Shown piece after piece: positions 1,634-27,803 of a stretch of DNA of 64,000 nucleotides. The position numbers were made by a program, and so were the translations under genes. A model generated the notes under the pieces. The model saw only the letters and a program-made list of their open reading frames with translations, made no database searches and was not told the DNA's origin. Source of the DNA: Cladosporium halotolerans. Lineage: Eukaryota. Location of the stretch: the NCBI RefSeq assembly GCF_011745625.1, contig NW_027191472.1, positions 1 to 64,000 on the forward strand, in the 5' to 3' direction. Position 1 is the stretch's first letter. Each line of letters opens with the position of its first letter.

Positions 1634-3281
1634 TCATCCGAACCTCACCTCCTCCCTCCAAATCCTCCACCACCTCCCCTCCCCGACCCCACCACTCTCG
1701 CCGGCCCCCACAAGCCCCTCGACATCCTCACACAGCGAAAACATCACGCCCACGACCCCCGCTCTCGCCGCGGCGGGCTCCGCGCCGCACCCGTGCAGCC
1801 TTCGCTCCTCTGGCACCTGACTTTCGCTTTCCGAAGCTTCGATCTCCGCAGCCCGCGCCGCGATGCCTGCTGCGCGGCGGCCGTCGAAGGGGCCGTCGCG
1901 GCCTGTTTGTTTCAAGAGATGAATGGCGCGTTGACGGATGAAGGGGACGCGGCATTTGAGGGCTGTCAGGAAGAGGGGTTGCGCGGGGCCGAGGTCGGGC
2001 GTGAAGGGAATTGGGAGGCTGGTTTGGGCGGGTGGGCGATTTTGTTGGTCTTGGGAGAGGATGACTTCGGCGTCGGCGAGGATGGACGCGAAAATGTTTG
2101 TGTATGCGTCGTAGGATTTTTCGTAGGGTGAGACGAGGGTTGAGAGGTAGATCAGGCAGGATTTGGCGTGCGTGTTGAGGACGAGGGCGCGGGTTTGGGT
2201 TCGGCCGGAGGAGTGTGAGGCGAGGGTGGTTGTTTGGGCGATTGTGTGGTGGAGGCGGGCTACGTGGCGGCTTTGGTCGATGGAGAGGCTGGTGGGGCGA
2301 AGGGAAGAGGGGAGGTATTTGTATTGAGAGGCGGTGCTGGCGAAGACATAGCTTGCGTGGAGTGTTTGGAGGGCGAGAGACTCAGGGTCTGTTGTGGTGT
2401 GGCTGTAGGGGTTTGAGTGGGTGGAGATTGGCGGGAGTCGGGGTCCGGTGCTGAGCACGTAGCTTGCTATGTTGACGTCTAGGACTAATGCTGCGTAGTC
2501 CAGTCCATCGGATGCGACGAACCGTGGTGTTTCGTCCTTGTTGGGAGTAGGAGGGGTTTGGGGAGGGCTCGTAGAGATAGCGCGATCACCAGAACCAGAT
2601 CGATGCAGCAGCAGTGCGACAAACCCTTGAAAATGAGCGAGAGCCTGGAGCTCTCGACCAGCAAAAAGATCCACGAACGCCAGCAGCAGACAGGTGGCTG
2701 GGATGGAGTTCGAATCGATGTTTTTGGCTGTTAATTGCTTTTGAACCTGGGTAACGGCTTTGCCGTACCATCGCAGCAGAGCCACAGCGGCCTTGTCGTC
2801 TCTCTGTACTTGCAACTGAGCTGCGGCTCCAAGAGCCGCAGTTGCATTGTGTATACCGCAGTCTGAGAACGCCAGCTGCGGTAGTAGGGAGTTCCAGAAA
2901 GGAGCGGTCTTCGCGGAGCCTCTGAGGGACCCGCCGCGTAATAGCTCACAGCCTAGCTTGGAAAATCTGCAGCTATCGCTAGTGCTTCCTGGACTGCTTA
3001 CACGTATAGCGAGCTCATGAGGCAGGTGTATCTGGATGGGCGAGTATGCAGCCTTTGTCTCATGAGGCAAATCTCGGTTCGGGTAGCCTTCACATAGCCT
3101 GCCAGCTCGGATGCATCGCAGACATGAAGGCTTAGCCTCATCGCATTTGACTTTTCGATCCCTTGCCAAGGTAAGTAGGTTTGAAGCGAACTAAGTTATT
3201 GACAACATACTTGCAAGTGTAACAACCGTGATGCGATTGCCTGACGGCCAAAGTTCGCGTCCGTTTCGATGTGGTCGACAT
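1634..3281 (-). CDS. Zn(II)2Cys6 fungal transcription factor
   Basis: Exon 1 MSTTSKRTRTLAVRQSHHGCYTCK, intron ~3210-3162 (GTATGT...AAG), then DRKVKCDEAKPSCLRCIRAGRLCEGY completes the six-Cys binuclear cluster. A long C-terminal fungal TF region follows. Confidence 0.92.
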
Positions 3282-3505
3282 GGTCGCGGCGCGCTCTTAC
3301 CGCAAGGTGCCGTCGTGTCCGACGCCTGCGAACATGGCGCAATGCTCGGTGCCGAGGGTGATGGTAAGCATCCACGTGGCGAGGCGCATTGATGAGGTTT
3401 GAACCTGTCAAACATCGAAGTGTCTCCACTCGTCGCATGGCAGTGCAGCATGGAGATTCGGCAGGGACCCACGTGTGCAAGGGCGAAACTTTAATTGACA
3501 CTAAC

Positions 3506-3629
3506 AAACTCAAAGACCGAGCAAAGGAGTGAACTAGTACCCGTCACCGAGATCACTAAACTCAAAGACCGAGCAATGTAGGTAACAACAATGATCAATA
3601 ATTAGAATGTCCAACGTAAAGACCGAGCA
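3506..3629. repeat. Three spaced direct copies of AAAGACCGAGCA
   Basis: AAACTCAAAGACCGAGCAA at 3506-3524 and 3558-3576, AAAGACCGAGCA at 3618-3629. Core-to-core spacing is 52 and 54 bp. Confidence 0.9.
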
Positions 3630-3791
3630 GAGGATATTTGATGACGACGCAGAATGCCGTGACGAGGCCCTCGTCTTTCGACATGCTATAAAGTGTTCTG
3701 TCAGCCGTCCCTAAGTTTTCTTTGATTGTAACCAACACAGCACGGTCCGTTCTACTCAAGTCGCTCTTATACTCTTCACTCCTTTGCCAAC

Positions 3792-4516
3792 ATGTTACAC
3801 CAAATCCTGGGCTCGCTCTTGTTGCTGAGCGTCGGTGGTCAAGCCGCCAAAATCCAAGGATGCAAGCCATTCCCATCTTCAATGGATGAGTTCTCTGGCA
3901 ACTTCCAGCAGCCACAGCCTCCGACTGTCCGTACGGAGTTCGGAACAAGCTTCATCCAGCACAAATGGTATTGTTGCTGTTTGAGAGACTTCCCCAATCC
4001 GTTGCTAACACGACAGCAGGAACACGAACCTCTCCCACGTCACTGCTGGCTACATCGAAAACTCCGCCGAGCGCAAGTTCGTTCGTGTGAGCGAGGCATA
4101 CGACGGTAACCTTGCGTCGTCGGCCTTCGAATATTCGAACGTCACTGCAGAGGGGCAAGTCAACAACGTGCTCACCACGTACGAAGCCAACAGCACCACG
4201 CCGAGCGTCTGGACCGGATATGTCATCTCCAACTTCCCGATCTTTGAGAAGGATATTCTTGTCACCTCTTCCGCAGTTTTCAGTGGCCTTGTCAAGCGTC
4301 CGTTTTTCGACGAGGAAGTTGCTTCCGTAGGTGCATCTCCAAGCTGAGTCCGAGATCCTTGACTGACGCGCATTGCAGTGGAGCATTCTTTACCTGGGCC
4401 AAATCCCAACCACGATCTACACGACCGATTGCAATGTTGTGGTTGGCTATGACTACTTCTCGCCGGGCTTGAGGACCAGAGTGGTGACTGAGTTCTTCAA
4501 CATCAAGGCCAATTGA
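3792..4516 (+). CDS. Secreted uncharacterised protein (~200 aa, 3 exons)
   Basis: Signal peptide MLHQILGSLLLLSVGGQA. Two GT-AG introns (~3968-4018, ~4327-4378) join to give ...QHKWNTNLSHVTAGYIENS...WSILYLGQIPTTIYTTDCNVVVGYDYFSPGLRTRVVTEFFNIKAN*. Confidence 0.85.
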
Positions 4517-4955
4517 GACTTGATAGCTCTGGCCCTAAGCTCTGGACATCAATGGCCCATTTGATAGTCATGCACAACGCATTCTTGCGGACATAGAGGA
4601 GGAGAAGGAGGTGATGGATTTCCATTGGAAGAGTCTTACTGACGTGGTTGGGTGCGCCGTGGTTATCTAAACCGTGCCGCCTCAGAAAGCGACAGCTAGG
4701 TACATACTGTTAGATATTCGTGTTTGTAGGCGGTAATAAAGATTTTATCCGATGTCCCAGTTGATTTCGAGAAACATCCATAGCGTAAGGAGAAGATACT
4801 AGACCAGAACGTGCAGAAACGTTGTAACACAGCCATGGAATGAGAGTTCTCTGTTTCGACATTGCTGCCGCTTCAAGACTGAAATGTTATAGTGCGACAT
4901 GATTGCCCTCGGGAGAGTGTTCTGAGTAAACAACAGAGACTAAAGCAATGGCGAA

Positions 4956-5036
4956 TCACGTGAACCACTACTGCCACCACGTGACCTGTCGCGCAGACCC
5001 CTCAGGCCCCTAAATAAGGAAATACAGCTTATATAT
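4956..5036 (+). promoter_or_regulatory. Upstream elements of the putative ncRNA: two CACGTG E-boxes and a TATA box
   Basis: TCACGTGA at 4956-4963, CCACGTGA at 4977-4984, and TATATAT at 5030-5036, about 25 nt before the start of the structured region. Confidence 0.5.
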
Positions 5037-5052
5037 GCGTGTAATGTTCCCA

Positions 5053-5259
5053 TTGACGTAACCAGGACATAAGCGGTAGGCGTGGGGTTTCGTGGCGAAG
5101 TGGGCAACGCCTGAGCGGGACTGCACCTCCGTTTGCTAGTGTTCTGGCGACACCCCAGTAAGCAAAACTCGTCAGGGTTTTCTTCCGGCGCACCGAACGA
5201 GATGTGGCTGTTCTTTTGCTGGCGAGTTCGAACCCCAGCAGCGTCAATCTTTTCTTTTT
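5053..5259 (+). ncRNA. Putative RNA polymerase III-transcribed structured non-coding RNA (~200 nt), family not recognised
   Basis: Closing stem TTGACGT(5053-59)/GCGTCAA(5241-47). Four perfect internal helices. A-box-like TGGCGAAGTGG (5093-5103), B-box-like GAGTTCGAACC (5224-5234), upstream TATA and downstream T-run. No credible ORF. Confidence 0.65.
5250..5259 (+). terminator. Oligo-T tract (Pol III-type terminator)
   Basis: TTTTCTTTTT immediately after the closing stem of the putative ncRNA. Confidence 0.55.
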
Positions 5260-5902
5260 ATCTCCTGTCGGTCATGTGACTCGGAGATAACGGCTAGCAC
5301 TCCCATCGCACCCTCCGGTGCCATTTGTGGGAGACAGCTTTCTCTTGTCTCACCGCACAAATTGGACGTAAGTTCTCAGTACTCGTTTTAGACTCGATTT
5401 TTCAAAGCGCATATGGATTGTGCACATCGAGGGAGGTTTGGCGCCGGTGTGGGTTGCCCAATCTTGTAAAGTTCGTTTCAATGCCTTCACCATTACTGAG
5501 ATAGGCCCACATCTTGGAAATACTCCTCTGAATTGTAAAGAGGCTACAGCAAGAGTGGTTCCTCACTGGAGGTACAGAGACCAGAAATGCTCTTTATGTC
5601 AGTGCCATCGGCGACGAGCTCCATTGCATGATGTAAGTCCACATCCGACGCAAGGAATCCCTGGGATATTTTGGCGTCATTCACTTCTTTCTGAGCAAAT
5701 AATTAGCAGCTCTAAAACCCATGAGATCAACATGAGCTCCACCCGTGAGGATGGGTTATCTTACAAGCTGTAATGGTTCAAGCGAACCTCGTACTTCCCT
5801 TTTCGTATGATGTGTGATGCAATATCATTGACCAGACATCATGCGAGTATGACAGCACCTTCTGTGTTGAGCCTGGAAAATGAACATGATCCCTAGTGCG
5901 CG

Positions 5903-5936
5903 GAAGTGAAGTGAAGTGAAGTGAAGTGAAGTGAAG
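5903..5936. repeat. (GAAGT)n pentanucleotide microsatellite, ~6.8 copies
   Basis: Perfect tandem GAAGT units ~125 bp upstream of the CDC73 ATG. Confidence 0.95.
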
Positions 5937-6060
5937 CTGCAGCGGCGCTTCGCCAAAGCTTCCCAAAACGGCCACGCGCGCAACCCTGGACTTCGACAAC
6001 GACGATCTTCCACTCCCAACACCTACCCATTGCTCACGAACTCTCTAAACAAATCACACC

Positions 6061-7326
6061 ATGGCGACTACAGACGGCCTCCCGCCCGACCCTCTTGCGT
6101 TTCTGCGCTCATCTATCGCGGATTCGAGCTTGCCCATTCCAACCACCTCGGCAGAAGCAACAACCGCAGAACAATCGCTGGCAGCTGCAGGATACTTGGT
6201 CTTCAATCGCAATGACCAACACATCTCGATACCACTCACGCAGGAGACGCGCTTCATCAGTGCTTCTCTCGGTGGCAAGCCGATCGACCTGCGCTCGGTC
6301 TTCTTCTGCTGGCAGAATCGCGACATGGGAACTGGTGACTACATCGCGGCAACACAGGCGCTCAATGGTGAACTTTCGGCACTGGGCAAGAGCGACACAG
6401 TAACAAACTTGGTGTTCGTGGAAAAGCTCGACCTGGTCAATTGGCTCAGCGGCGAGAGCGGCGAGGAAGAGAGCGAGTTCATCAAGAGCCTGGACGACAA
6501 CCAGCAGACCAGAGCCGAAGCGCGCGATGCGGCCGTCACCGCCGCCGGCGGCGAAGACGTCGAGATGCGCGACGCCGGCGTCACGGACGCCGCCGCCCGC
6601 AAGCGCGAGGAGGAACGCCTGCGCGAGATCTACGCGCTCGAGCGCAAGATGGGCGACCGCAACACCGTCCTCCGCGGCGTCAAGGTGCAGGACTTCAGCG
6701 GCATCCGCAAGTTCAGCGCCGCCTTCCACGTCAAGAACGCCAAAGCCGCGGCCCCCAGCGCGCCGCTCAGCGCCAACCCGGCCCTGCGCCCCTCCGGCAA
6801 GCCCTCCGGCGGCCGCCGTGCCGAGCCCATCATCCTCCTCTCGCCCTCCGCGTCCAGCCTCATCCGCATGCCGAACGTCAAGGCCTTCCTGCAGGACGGC
6901 CAGTACCAGGCGCCGGAGACGGCGTCGTCCACCGCGCCCAACATCCTGCAGCTCACGCGTCTGCTGCCGAGTATTGATCCGCAGCGGCCCATGCGCTTCA
7001 TCCTCGTCGACTCGCCCGACCAGTTCCGCCCGGACTACTGGAACCGCGTGGTTGCGGTTTTCACGACGGGCCAGGCGTGGCAGTTCAAGAATTACAAGTG
7101 GCAGGCGCCCGCGGATTTGTTCAGCCACGTGCTGGGCGTGTATGTTGGGTGGCAGGGTGAGGTGGTGCCGGATACCGTGAAGGGTTGGGGACGCGGCGTG
7201 CTGAGTGTTGGGCTAGATAAGGGGCATGCGAGGTGGAGGGATCGCGAGGTTGTCGAGGAGGTTTGGAGTGGGATCGAGGCTAGGATGAGGGCTATGGGGT
7301 GGTCGAGGGATGGGCCGAGGCAGTAA
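6061..7326 (+). CDS. CDC73: Paf1 complex subunit Cdc73 (parafibromin)
   Basis: 421-aa ORF with the C-terminal signature PIILLSPSASSLI...RFILVDSPDQFRPDYWNRVVAVFTTGQAWQFKNYKW. Confidence 0.95.
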   Translation: MATTDGLPPDPLAFLRSSIADSSLPIPTTSAEATTAEQSLAAAGYLVFNRNDQHISIPLTQETRFISASLGGKPIDLRSVFFCWQNRDMGTGDYIAATQALNGELSALGKSDTVTNLVFVEKLDLVNWLSGESGEEESEFIKSLDDNQQTRAEARDAAVTAAGGEDVEMRDAGVTDAAARKREEERLREIYALERKMGDRNTVLRGVKVQDFSGIRKFSAAFHVKNAKAAAPSAPLSANPALRPSGKPSGGRRAEPIILLSPSASSLIRMPNVKAFLQDGQYQAPETASSTAPNILQLTRLLPSIDPQRPMRFILVDSPDQFRPDYWNRVVAVFTTGQAWQFKNYKWQAPADLFSHVLGVYVGWQGEVVPDTVKGWGRGVLSVGLDKGHARWRDREVVEEVWSGIEARMRAMGWSRDGPRQ

Positions 7327-7773: not shown

Positions 7774-9805
7774 TCACTCCTCAATCTTCTTCTCCTCCAC
7801 AACCCCCTGCCCACCCTTCGACAGCGTCGGCAGATCCCTATCAAGATCATACATCTTCTCCTCCAGCGCATCATAGTGGTGAAACAGCAGCCAAAACACG
7901 ACCGCCGTGCCAGCCGTGAAGACGCCAATGCCCGCGTACATCCACAGGATCTTCGGGTCGACCAGCACGGGCAGCAGCGCCTCGCTCAGCGCGGACCCGA
8001 ACGCGTTCGTCAGCAGGTACATGCTCTGCACGAAGCTCTTCATGCTCGGCGGCGCCTTCGTGTACGCGTACTCCAGGCCCGTGACGCTGATGAAGATCTC
8101 GGCGAGGCCGATGAAGACGTACGCGGGCGTCTGCACGGCGATGTGCACGTGGTTGGGCAAGGGGGTTTCGCCGTCCATGCCGGCGGGGCAGGCGCCGGGG
8201 GCGCTGTAGCAGGGGCCCGCGGAGTAGACGAGGTGCTGGACGATGGCGGCGTAGGCCATGCAGAGGGCGGCGAAGGAGAAGCCGATGGTGATGCGGGCGA
8301 TGGGGCGGAGCTCGATGCCCGCGCGGCGGAGGATGGGGTAGAGGATGCGGTCGAGGAGGGGTGTGAAGATGAGGATGGAGATGGGGTCGAAGTTCTGCAT
8401 GAAGTCGTTCGGCATGCCGTGGCCTTGCATTTGGCCGGCTTGCGAGACGAAGTTGGAAGAGAATTGGCCGTAGCAAACCCAGAAGATGGGGTCTGTGAGG
8501 GAAGGAGGCGTTAGTGAGGGTTGATGGTCTGCGACGAGGGTAGGGTTTGCTTACAGAAGACGAAGACTTTGCAGGCTTTGAGGGCGCGCTGGAGCTCGTC
8601 GACGAAGTGGTCGCTCCAGGGCACGGGCTTAGTGATGCCGTTGGTCGCACGCCAGGAGGGTTTCGGGGCGTTTGTGTTTCGCTTCTTGATCATGATGCCG
8701 ATCGCCTTGAAAGCGTCGGTGATAATGGAGCCTTGCGGCGGGCGAACGACGTATGAGTTGCGGCGGAGGATGAGGACGCCGATGCCGACGTTGAACATGC
8801 AGAAGCACATCAGGAAAGCAGTCCAGAAGCCCTTGGCCTTTTCCATGAAAGGCGTGGCGATCAAAGAAAGCGAGCCGAGGTTGATGCACCAGTAGAAGAC
8901 CATGTAGATACGCTGGTATGTGATGGCCGGGTCGATGATTGTGCGTTCGCCGCCCTTCTGAACTTTGATGGCCATCTTGCGGCGTTGGTATTGATCGGCG
9001 ATCAGAGGAGCAATGTTGGATTTGATGCCACCGGTACCGAGACCAATGACAATGATTGCCGTGACATAGCCGCCGAGGGCGTGTCCGCTTTCGACAGAGA
9101 AGGGTAAGGCACTGACCCAAAGGATGATCAAGCCCTGAAAGCCCGGGTCAGTCGTGGTATGAAGAGGCCAGGAGCATGTCGATACTTACGACCCAGTAAC
9201 AGCCCGCAAACAGCAAGATCGTCTTGTACTTGCCAAGGTACTGATCGGCGATGACAGCACCGAGGATGGGTGTAACTGAGATTGAATGTTAAAATCGATG
9301 CAACTATCAAGGGATTCCATCGAACGTACCATAGCAGAACCACTGGAAGAATAGATTCAATCCGGTGGCGCCCTGATGCCCCAAACCCAGACCAGGAGCG
9401 CCATCAGCACCATTGGGCCTGTTGTTGATGTAATTCTGGAACAAGCCCTGAGAGCCGTAGTAGGTGAATCGCTCTGTCAATTCAACGACGGCGATCAGGT
9501 AGGCCGAAGCAGGAAGGTTCTCGCCCACTCGGCGGAGAGTACGCTTCTCGTGCTCGTTGGGCTCTTCGCCTTCGGCCGTCGGGTCGAGCTCGACATCAGT
9601 CGGTGTGGCGGCGGCTTCCTTTTCGTCCAGGTCTGAGCGTCCGATGTAGCCGCCGGCCAGATCGCGCTCTTTGTTGGGGACGCGCTCGGCGAACTCTTCG
9701 TGCAGCCTGTGGTATTGTGAGTATGGCGCGTTGTGGTGGATTGAGTGAAGGTCAAGGTGGGAAGATGACTTACTCTGCTGCGGCGTCCTGGTGGTTCTGC
9801 GCCAT
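7774..9805 (-). CDS. PTR2: POT/PTR family di/tripeptide transporter (multi-exon)
   Basis: ExxERFxYYG motif (VELTERFTYYG), GLGTGGIKSNIAPLIADQY, FYWCINLGSL and GLEYAYTKAPPSMKS. ATG at 9805 is followed by a GTAAGT donor. Confidence 0.93.
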
Positions 9806-26029: not shown

Positions 26030-27803
26030 ATGGCTTCGATCGATGCAATCGTCAACGCCGGCCCGTCCGCCCAGCAGCCGCGCGACGACGACAATGATCC
26101 GGCGGAGCAGTTCGACGCTCTGAACGTCCGCGAGGACAGCGAGGGCTGGAACGATGTCGAGGAAGACGCCGAGGAGTTCAATGTGCAGTGTCTGTTTTGT
26201 AGCGAGGTTGCGACGTCTTTGACGCAGGCGCTGGATCACATGAAGGCGGAGCATGGTTTTGATCTTGTGGCGTTCCGCTCTAAGCATGGTAGGTAGGTCT
26301 GGGAGCCGGGTTGTGCTTTTTGACTAAAAAGCAATATGAGGCTGACGACTGGCAGGCCTTGATTTCTTTGGCATGATCAAGTTTGTGAATTACGTGCGTT
26401 CTCAGGTTAAGGAGGGTAACGCCAAGCCTGAGACTGAGAACCCGTCCGCTTGGGACGATGAGAAGTTCATGCAGCCCGTGCTTGAGGACGATGCGCTGCT
26501 GTTCAGTGTCGATGAATTAGAGTCGATGGAATCGAGCGGCAAGCAGCCTGAGGCTTCTGAAGCAAACAACGCCACGGATGAGGTCTCGAAGCTCAAGGAG
26601 CAGCTCAGCAAACTCCAATCACAGTTCGACGTCTATCGCGAGCAGGTCAGCGAAACATTAGAGAAGCGCTGGTCTGATGCTCCTAGCAAGAACGAAGGCG
26701 AAGGCGAAGCAAAGGCGAAGCGCTACGACGATTCGTACTTCGAGAGTTACAGCTTCAACGATATCCATCAGACTATGCTCCAGGACACTGTCCGCACAGA
26801 AGCCTACCGCGACTTCATCTACGAGAACAAGAACTTGTTCGCTGGCAAGACTGTCATGGATGTGGGCTGTGGTACTGGTATTCTCTCCATGTTCTGCGCC
26901 AAAGCTGGCGCCAAGCAAGTCTTCGCTCTCGACAACAGCGCCATCATCGACAAAGCACGCCAGATCGCGTTCGACAATGGACTCGACAAGCAGATCACTT
27001 TCATTCGCGGCAAGGTGGAAGACCTCCATGAGCTGCCCGGAAGCTACAAGCATGTCGACATCATCGTCAGTGAATGGATGGGCTACTGCCTGTTCTTCGA
27101 AAACATGCTGCCGTCTGTCTTCTGCGCAAGGGACCGCTTCATGAAGCGCCGCGCCGACGGCTCTTTCGACGGTCTCATGGTACCCAGCCATGTCAGCGTA
27201 CACCTAGCACCGCTTGCGGACCCCGACTGGGTGAGCGACAATGTGACATTTTGGAGCGACGTGTATGGTTTCGACATGCACTGCATGCTGGAGGGTGCGC
27301 TCGAGGACGTCGTTGTGCAACACCCGCCTGCGAAGACCGTGGTTGGCAGCACCTCGCAGAAGCGTCCCATCGCAATGTGGGACCTCCACCAGGCGAAGGC
27401 CGAGGACCTGCAGTTCGACGTGCCGTTCGAGGTCGCCTTGGACCAAGACATCGACTCGCTCGATGCGTGGTGCACGTGGTTCGATACCGTCTTTTCGCCC
27501 GCGCCACCGGCGTCTGCCGGCGCGCCGGGCATGATCGCGCCGGAGGAGCAGGAGAAGCTGTCTGCCCAGAAGGGTGCAGTGACTTTCAGCACTAGTCCCA
27601 TGACCAAGCGCACCCACTGGCAGTGCGGTACCTGCATTGTCGATCGAAAGGGGAAGACTGGTAACAAGCTAAGCTCTGGCACGACTATCGGTGGCGCCAT
27701 CAAGTTCTTGAAGGATGCGGAGGGCAGAGGTCTGAACATTACGGCGGAGTGGGATTCGAAGGATGGTCAGGAGAAGGGAACGCAGGCTTGGAAGATGCGA
27801 TGA
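26030..27803 (+). CDS. RMT3: Protein arginine N-methyltransferase 3 (C2H2 zinc finger + PRMT core)
   Basis: CLFC...HMKAEHGFD zinc finger, VMDVGCGTGILSMF SAM motif, IIVSEWMGY double-E loop and THW loop. Intron ~26289-26355. An alternative ATG exists at 25973. Confidence 0.93.

Follow-up and report, generated by a model that had tools for sequence, protein, structure and literature searches.

In the fungus Cladosporium halotolerans, the first 64,000 nucleotides of contig NW_027191472.1 (assembly GCF_011745625.1; this whole stretch is called the window below) contain, in the 1.6 kb that separate an upstream plus-strand gene from CDC73, a genuine non-coding element that is constrained and present as a single copy. 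The element carries RNA polymerase III (Pol III) signals in a rare combination together with a conserved plus-strand hairpin (Table 1) and is probably a new small RNA gene, whose expression we infer from these features. The reading that we place first, tentatively and a little short of even confidence, is a single-copy orphan Pol III-type gene on the plus strand, which would give rise to an RNA of ~195 nt of an uncatalogued family. The motifs, their rarity, the hairpin and its conservation are direct observations, as are the single copy in the window and in four relatives and the lack of a match to any known family.

As in Pol III type-2 genes, an A-box is followed by a B-box on the same strand, here at a long spacing of ~120 bases; in addition, a TATA element ~30 bases before the expected start and a T-run terminator frame the unit, and both are kept in relatives. 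The strings listed by a first-pass annotation, which was made from the letters of this DNA alone, are all found at the places that it gave, but the candidate terminator does not directly follow the closing helix as it had claimed, the bases TC lying between them. The A-box pattern TRGCNNAGTGG is matched exactly five times in the window compared with an expected 0.79, and none of 100 shuffles reaches five. The four other matches (14866, 32486, 52909 and, on the minus strand, 51791) lie in unrelated contexts with no B-box or tRNA near any of them. With at most one mismatch allowed, the B-box pattern is found 18 times compared with 16.5 expected; the one exact match in the window, GGTTCGATACC (27478-27488, plus strand), coincides with no tRNA call by ARAGORN. 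TATAWAW is present only nine times on both strands (128,000 strand-places), and T runs of at least five bases 63 times on both strands. From the measured frequencies of TATAWAW, T runs and the B-box, we calculate 8e-7 to 5e-6 chance occurrences per window of an ordered single-strand arrangement in which TATAWAW precedes the A-box by 40-80 bases, a B-box follows the A-box at 20-160 bases and a T5 run comes at most 40 bases after the B-box. The Pol III-style layout recognized in the first-pass annotation is therefore real, and such a promoter-like arrangement is not chance in any ordinary sense. The function of the T4CT5 run as a terminator is plausible from its sequence.

The conservation of the locus has been followed in four public runs of close relatives, representing four organisms (X18, X10, X21 and X20), mapped on positions 4800-5500. 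Each of the four provides one orthologous contig with homologous flanks, and none of these contigs fits two places or continues into unlike sequence. X18, the most diverged run, shows 54 changed letters and two gaps in 701 places, and the differences amount to 22 in 480 places for X10, 10 in 233 for X21 and 4 in 196 for X20. Positions are available for 40 of 60 changes, all of which include X18, and are unlisted for nine changes of X10, one of X21 and one of X20; judging from the counts, the differences of X18 are taken as complete up to 5319, and its other 14 are placed after 5319. The stretch 5068-5167 is covered whole in X18, X10 and X21 and up to 5151 in X20. In X18, the differences crowd together up to 4969 and thin out thereafter, with 4 in the 198 places of 4970-5167 compared with 25 in the 132 places of the left flank (p 1e-7). 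Conservation in relatives had been named in the first-pass annotation as a check on its gene, and for the 5' half the outcome is favorable. An unchanged run of at least 100 bases, as found in the invariant block, has a p value of 0.007 if the 56 differences of X18 are spread evenly. By contrast, the rate of change in 5168-5250 is set apart from that in 4970-5167 (p 0.001) and does not differ from that of the left flank (p 0.25). Hence, strong constraint acts on the 5' half of the proposed RNA, whereas the 3' half is free of it except for the B-box and the T5 run. All 11 places of the B-box are unchanged, compared with 6 of the 23 other places in 5217-5250 that vary (p 0.075). The same holds for the complete signal set: TATA, A-box, B-box and T-run are unchanged in the relatives compared, while places beside the B-box and the T-run vary. 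No difference is listed for X18, X20 or X10 in the TATATAT region (5025-5066), and the T to A change of the relatives at 5250 spares the T5 run of the candidate terminator. The borders originally drawn around the element are not supported by this comparison, with 5168-5250 differing at 12% (flank 19%), whereas 4970-5059 and 5251-5319 are core-like. As to distant relatives, a 20-mer of the invariant block retrieved two loci in a metagenome scan, both of them chance matches in bacterial coding sequence, and a 24-mer had no match in prokaryotic genome contigs or viral contigs.

The best-supported structural element is an imperfect hairpin of 86 bases, which has a z score of -2.98 on the plus strand and -1.00 on the minus strand, values that are somewhat flattering because the borders 5062-5147 were picked after the fold had been seen. 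Its tip (5094-5111) consists of GGCG and CGCC around a 10-base loop and bears the A-box much like a D-arm. The sole change listed within the hairpin, A to G at 5067 in all four runs, converts an A-U into a G-U pair and keeps the pairing. The first-pass annotation had proposed a different fold, in which four helices (H1 to H4) radiate from a multiloop inside a closing helix. This five-helix structure reaches only -29.4 kcal/mol. The minimum free energy (MFE) of 5053-5250 is -71.3 kcal/mol compared with -68.1 +/- 4.4 kcal/mol for shuffles (z -0.73, with 47 of 200 shuffles as stable), and the minus strand of the same segment has a z score of +0.38. Pair probabilities in the ensemble are 0.00 for H1, 0.00 for H2, 0.37 for H3, 0.66-1.0 for the closing helix and 0.84-0.98 for H4. 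The multiloop thus does not hold, as H1 and H2 are absent from the ensemble and H3 loses two of its five pairs in all three covering runs (T to C at 5169 and 5172; C to T at 5168 keeps its pair). When the nine changes shared by the relatives are applied, the 5' hairpin retains probabilities of 0.85-0.96, H3 vanishes and H4 drops to 0.13, for which reason the multiloop is regarded as unsupported and the 5' hairpin as supported. The closing helix is doubtful: it is favored in the ensemble, but one of its pairs is lost in one of three covering runs (T to G at 5244 in X18) and its 5' arm lies only 17-23 bases past the TATA element. The changes in the H4 stem (C to T at 5236 in X18, and A to G at 5237 and 5240 in X18, X21 and X10) all leave G-U pairs on the plus strand. 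Taking the three favored helices together, four of five changes stay G-U on the plus strand and would be A-C on the minus strand, a pattern that leans towards a plus-strand RNA and is not significant (p 0.19). Other segments give z scores of +0.11 (5150-5250), +0.40 (5060-5255), -2.65 on the plus strand (5260-5362) and -1.42 (5060-5362).

Comparison with known RNA classes leaves the locus an orphan. There is no Rfam match at the gathering score in the whole window, and searches of 1301, 391 and 213 bases with E values up to 10 yield only noise far below the cut-offs, namely sR14 (12.4 bits), mir-277 (13.2 bits) and hairpin ribozyme (10.9 bits) outside the locus. In particular, small nuclear RNAs (snRNAs), signal recognition particle (SRP) RNA, RNase P/MRP, U3, 5S, small nucleolar RNAs (snoRNAs) and the Afu_* families have no match at the locus with E up to 10. 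A tRNA is rejected, since ARAGORN with default parameters makes no tRNA call at the locus or in the window, whether introns are allowed or not, and the Rfam tRNA model has no match in 213 bases with E up to 10; a poor 'tRNA-His' (5079-5246) with an intron of 95 bases emerges only once introns are allowed and the threshold is lowered to 80% or less. These searches agree with the first-pass annotation, which had seen neither a tRNA nor a hallmark of U-snRNAs, SRP, RNase P/MRP or 5S RNA and had left the comparison with Rfam families as a check. SRP RNA and a Sm-class snRNA have been considered and rejected, having no Rfam match. An H/ACA snoRNA is also rejected: ANANNA is found only at 5012, 5067 and 5285, with none in the hinge (5148-5167), and the only well-placed ACA (5357-5359) is GCA in X18 and X10. 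For a C/D snoRNA, no RUGAUGA is seen by eye in 5040-5400, the nearest string being GTGGCGA with two mismatches, 18 bases from the only CTGA. A telomerase RNA (1.5-2 kb, with a template of ~1.5 repeats) is rejected as well: the plus strand of 3000-6100 contains only single CCCTAA strings (3709, 4533 and 5008) and no repeat 9-mer, the minus strand comes no closer than a 9-mer at 5179 that has one mismatch, and a plus-strand coding gene occupies 3792 to ~4350. An intron from 5158 to 5238 or 5241 was likewise discarded, both AG acceptors being lost in relatives (A to G at 5237 and 5240).

We infer the transcription of the element, the polymerase, the ends of the RNA and its role as follows. TFIIIB would be placed on the upstream TATATAT (5030-5036) and TFIIIC would bind the internal A-box (5093-5103) and B-box (5225-5235), forming a mixed promoter. 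In yeasts, the spacing from TATA to start is 25-30 bases, and since TATATAT is taken as the TFIIIB site, the start is expected near 5060, which is the foot of the 86-base hairpin. Such a start puts the A-box at ~+33 and excludes the closing helix's 5' arm (5053-5059) from the RNA. Transcription would stop in T4CT5 (5250-5259), and the product would be a ~195-nt RNA with a 3' U-run. Its working part would be the invariant 5' portion, comprising the hairpin (5062-5147) and a single-stranded stretch to 5167, which presumably acts as a protein-binding or base-pairing platform of a ribonucleoprotein (RNP) and whose hairpin tip would mimic a tRNA D-arm. The 3' portion would mainly be a promoter and terminator module (B-box hairpin and T-run) that is free to drift. 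In a more far-reaching version, which we regard as possible but doubtful, the locus represents an undescribed Pol III RNA family (~195 nt) of filamentous ascomycetes that forms the RNA core of an unknown RNP. D-arm-like and T-loop-like palindromic tips would in that case double as promoter boxes around the invariant 86-base hairpin.

Several observations weigh against a Pol III gene of this kind. The A-box lies 33-41 bases past any start compatible with the TATA element or the closing helix; in tRNA genes it is found ~18-20 bases after the start (+8 of the mature tRNA, with the start 10-12 bases before) (PMC5356446). Chance readily produces a B-box with one mismatch. The folding of 5053-5250 and 5060-5255 is at shuffle level (z -0.73 and +0.40), no compensatory double change is seen among the relatives compared, and 5168-5250, to which 42% of the proposed RNA belongs, differs about as often as the flank and does not keep its predicted fold in the relatives. 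Conservation also spills past the proposed gene, by ~90 bases upstream, where it begins near 4970, and by 70-100 bases downstream. These 90 upstream bases and 5251-5319 are as conserved as the core, which a plain Pol III gene does not predict. The relatives are few and close, with 92-98% identity and about three lineages, as many changes are shared. Finally, none of 24 indexed runs is recorded as RNA and all four compared are contigs of presumed kind; the 233-base contig of X21 (5039-5271, depth 2.3) is indistinguishable from low-coverage DNA and is not used as evidence either way, and the comparison leaves aside 16 further runs with shares of 0.17-0.31. Of the stand-alone structured non-coding RNA proposed in the first-pass annotation, the layout and the orphan status are retained, and the constraint on the 5' half is in its favor; its fold and borders were partly wrong.

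The spill of conservation would fit a Pol II unit, a rather unlikely alternative. It would use 4957-5060 as promoter, with E-box-like sites, CCCTAA, TGACGTAA and TATA, the Pol III boxes being coincidental, and transcription would start at ~5060-5100 and run through the T-run to at least ~5360, giving a snRNA- or snoRNA-like RNA, a long non-coding RNA or a structured mRNA leader. The two E-box-like strings, CACGTGA and CACGTGAC, may be bHLH/Cbf1-type sites, and ATTTGTGG, located between two hairpins of the second structured block (z -2.65 for 5260-5362), presumably resembles an Sm site. This second block may stand by itself as an element or extend a longer transcript; from their sequence, the flank strings resemble a Pol II promoter with a longer structured transcript after it, or alternatively a second element abuts the first. 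In some ascomycetes, TBF1 and CBF1 sites mark the promoters of ribosomal-protein and snoRNA genes (PMC4138321), and it is this precedent together with the flank strings that gives the Pol II alternative its weight. Conservation from 4970 to 5357, which overshoots the proposed Pol III unit at either end, 5'-splice-site-like GTAAGC (5158) and GTAAGT (5368), and a conserved/variable/conserved pattern that suits two functional domains with a linker are also in line with it. However, a Pol II unit leaves a Pol III signal set that is expected ~1e-6 times per window to coincidence. There is no Rfam snRNA or snoRNA match, no H box in the hinge, no ACA at 5357-5359 in X18 and X10 and no C box (by eye). 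In addition, 5060-5362 as a whole has a z score of only -1.42, and the T to G change at 5319 in X18 breaks a pair in one of the second block's hairpins.

The shuffle-level folding of the whole would also suit untranscribed cis-regulatory DNA, in which factor sites serving CDC73 or a neighbor are densely clustered and the Pol III motifs and helices are chance. Factor-site-like strings are indeed abundant, including CACGTGA twice, CATGTGAC, TGACGTAA and CGG-N10-CCG at 5115-5131; the arms of the closing helix are both TGACG half-sites, and a Zn2Cys6 factor gene lies near (1634-3169). Yet we consider such a cluster improbable, given that 100 unchanged bases in a row are long for it, that the stability of the hairpin is strand-specific and that chance seldom yields the full Pol III layout.

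The position of both A- and B-box at hairpin tips, like D- and T-loops, brings to mind a tRNA-gene relic or an extra-TFIIIC-type site, where bound TFIIIC or Pol III would act on chromatin, for instance by forming a boundary that separates the upstream gene from CDC73, and any RNA would be weak and without a role. The boxes stay while the 3' half drifts, ARAGORN draws the poor intron-bearing 'tRNA-His' noted above once its threshold is lowered, and the yeast ZOD1 and the YGR033C locus are described as weakly transcribed tRNA-gene relics (PMC5356446). This reading is nevertheless hardly likely: nothing is called by ARAGORN at default and no Rfam tRNA model matches 213 bases with E up to 10, the boxes are ~120 bases apart, and a 100-base invariant block plus an 86-base hairpin far exceed what two boxes need.

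A short interspersed element (SINE) or other dispersed tRNA-derived repeat, suggested by the type-2 promoter typical of SINEs, and a small coding exon, suggested by a 105-codon stop-free frame on the minus strand with a 75-residue gene call (P0001) over it in a relative, are both close to refuted by the single copy without target-site duplication and by the protein searches, respectively. There is no second copy of the locus in the 64-kb window and only one contig with orthologous flanks in each of the four runs, so that the dispersed copies by which the first-pass annotation would have recognized a SINE are absent within this range. Seven stop-free frames compared with Pfam stay below every cut-off (best listed E value 0.068, 14.2 bits compared with a cut-off of 25). 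The only match of the 105-codon frame among 1.84 billion representatives is P0001, which comes from a near relative, is 93% identical over 5027-5251 and differs by five residues that equal changes already seen in the contigs of the relatives; it is most likely a false gene call. A 72-residue minus-strand open reading frame (ORF) over the locus has no homologue, and by hand count most changes fall at its first and second codon places. A mod-3 pattern, with one phase taking 7 of 11 changes by hand count, is put down to chance, and every frame contains stops.

Animal vault RNA and Y RNA are transcribed by Pol III, measure ~100-200 nt and have 5' and 3' ends that can pair, internal boxes and a 3' U-run; the locus may resemble them, but here there is no Rfam match and the closing helix is doubtful. 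Some of the Afu RNAs of Aspergillus fumigatus are Rfam families. Afu-182, Afu-202, Afu-309 as well as Afu-336 represent intergenic RNAs of 130-320 nt with no assigned class that have been detected by northern blot and are conserved in related species (PMC2377427); they are compared here by description only, and no Afu_* family is among the Rfam matches. In yeast, orphan Pol III genes exist (PMC5356446). RNA170 of Saccharomyces cerevisiae is likewise a small, single-copy, non-tRNA gene of Pol III type with internal boxes, an obscure function and conservation among near relatives only (PMC5356446). The present locus further has a TATA upstream and a long hairpin that is invariant, and its Pol III type is assigned from sequence signals. 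SNR6 (U6), which pairs an upstream TATA with an internal A-box, and SCR1 (SRP RNA) share with it the upstream TATA, the internal A-box, the distant B-box and the T-run end (PMC5356446). In contrast to these, the locus has no Rfam U6 or SRP match, and its B-box is inside the proposed transcript beside the candidate terminator. ZOD1 and the YGR033C locus carry A- and B-boxes, have lost the tRNA fold and show Pol III binding or weak Pol III transcription (PMC5356446). Unlike them, the present locus has ~100 invariant bases outside the boxes, a stable hairpin and a box spacing of ~120 bases.

Six strings of 15-18 bases from the locus were not found printed in the literature searched, nor did this literature, including passages of an Aspergillus RNAz paper (PMC2467506), link CDC73 with an Aspergillus non-coding RNA. 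A general search of the Pol III literature returned nothing on fungi. To our knowledge, the Pol III transcriptome of filamentous fungi has barely been charted past tRNA, 5S, U6, SRP RNA and RNase P RNA. If the orphan Pol III gene is true, a conserved RNA with a constrained hairpin would point to a new RNP component to seek, and its compact promoter and terminator unit could be of practical use, for instance in guide-RNA expression. If bound TFIIIC is the agent, the locus would be a Pol III boundary element beside a Pol II elongation-factor gene. Either way, correct annotation removes an error, the false 75-residue P0001 in a relative.

Table 1. Coordinates of the element, its conservation segments, flanking strings and neighboring genes
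Feature	Position	Strand	Remarks
TATATAT, candidate TATA element	5030-5036	+	~25-30 bases before a start near 5060
Closing helix arms TTGACGT / GCGTCAA	5053-5059 / 5241-5247	+	string check
Long-range AGGACA / TGTTCT	5064-5069 / 5209-5214	+	string check
H1 AGGCGT / ACGCCT	5078-5083 / 5107-5112	+	string check
H2 TTTGCT / AGCAAA	5132-5137 / 5161-5166	+	string check
H3 CTCGT / ACGAG	5168-5172 / 5197-5201	+	string check
H4 TGCTGG / CCAGCA	5217-5222 / 5235-5240	+	string check
H4 hairpin TGCTGG / 12-base loop / CCAGCA	5217-5240	+	loop is B-box-like AGTTCGAACCC
A-box-like TGGCGAAGTGG	5093-5103	+	exact TRGCNNAGTGG match, inside invariant block
B-box-like string of the first-pass annotation, GAGTTCGAACC	5224-5234	+	string check
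B-box-like AGTTCGAACCC, palindrome-centered	5225-5235	+	one mismatch to B-box pattern; loop of H4 hairpin
TTTTCTTTTT (T4CT5), candidate Pol III terminator	5250-5259	+	two bases (TC) after closing helix
Imperfect hairpin, 86 bases	5062-5147	+	in MFE and centroid folds; pair probability 0.91-1.0
Invariant block, 100 bases	5068-5167	+	no difference among changes listed, four runs
Fast-changing 3' segment with H3, H4 and closing-helix 3' arm	5168-5250	+	X18 10/83 differences, 12.0%
Left flank	4838-4969		X18 25/132 differences, 18.9%
Segment before the block	4970-5066		X18 3/97 differences, 3.1%
Segment with the block	5067-5167		X18 1/101 differences, 1.0%
Segment after the 3' segment	5251-5319		X18 2/69 differences, 2.9%
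Second conserved structured block	5251-5357	+	2/69 differences (5251-5319, X18); z -2.65 for 5260-5362
E-box-like CACGTGA	4957-4963	unstranded	read from sequence; left edge of conserved domain
E-box-like CACGTGAC	4978-4985	unstranded	read from sequence; left edge of conserved domain
CCCTAA	5008-5013		conserved stretch before TATA
TGACGTAA	5054-5061		factor-site-like string
CATGTGAC	5273-5280		factor-site-like string, after T-run
ATTTGTGG	5323-5330	+	between two hairpins of second block
GTAAGT	5368-5373	+	after second block
Zn2Cys6 factor gene	1634-3169	-	neighbor of locus
Upstream gene	3792 to ~4350 or beyond	+	signal-peptide-like N-terminus, at least one short intron, coding
CDC73	6061-7326	+	ORF of 421 residues; Pfam CDC73_C E 7.8e-53; Atlas clusters named Cdc73, commonest phylum Ascomycota
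POT-family transporter gene	~7774-8430	-	neighbor on CDC73 side

Among the surrounding genes, the Pfam CDC73_C match bears out the placement of the element upstream of CDC73 in the first-pass annotation. No Pfam family is matched by the upstream gene (3792-4350), 3' of which an AATAAA is found at ~4737. A (GAAGT)n microsatellite of ~7 units (5893-5926) lies ~135 bases before the CDC73 start codon, and the X18 contig (1478 bases) is calculated to end near it.

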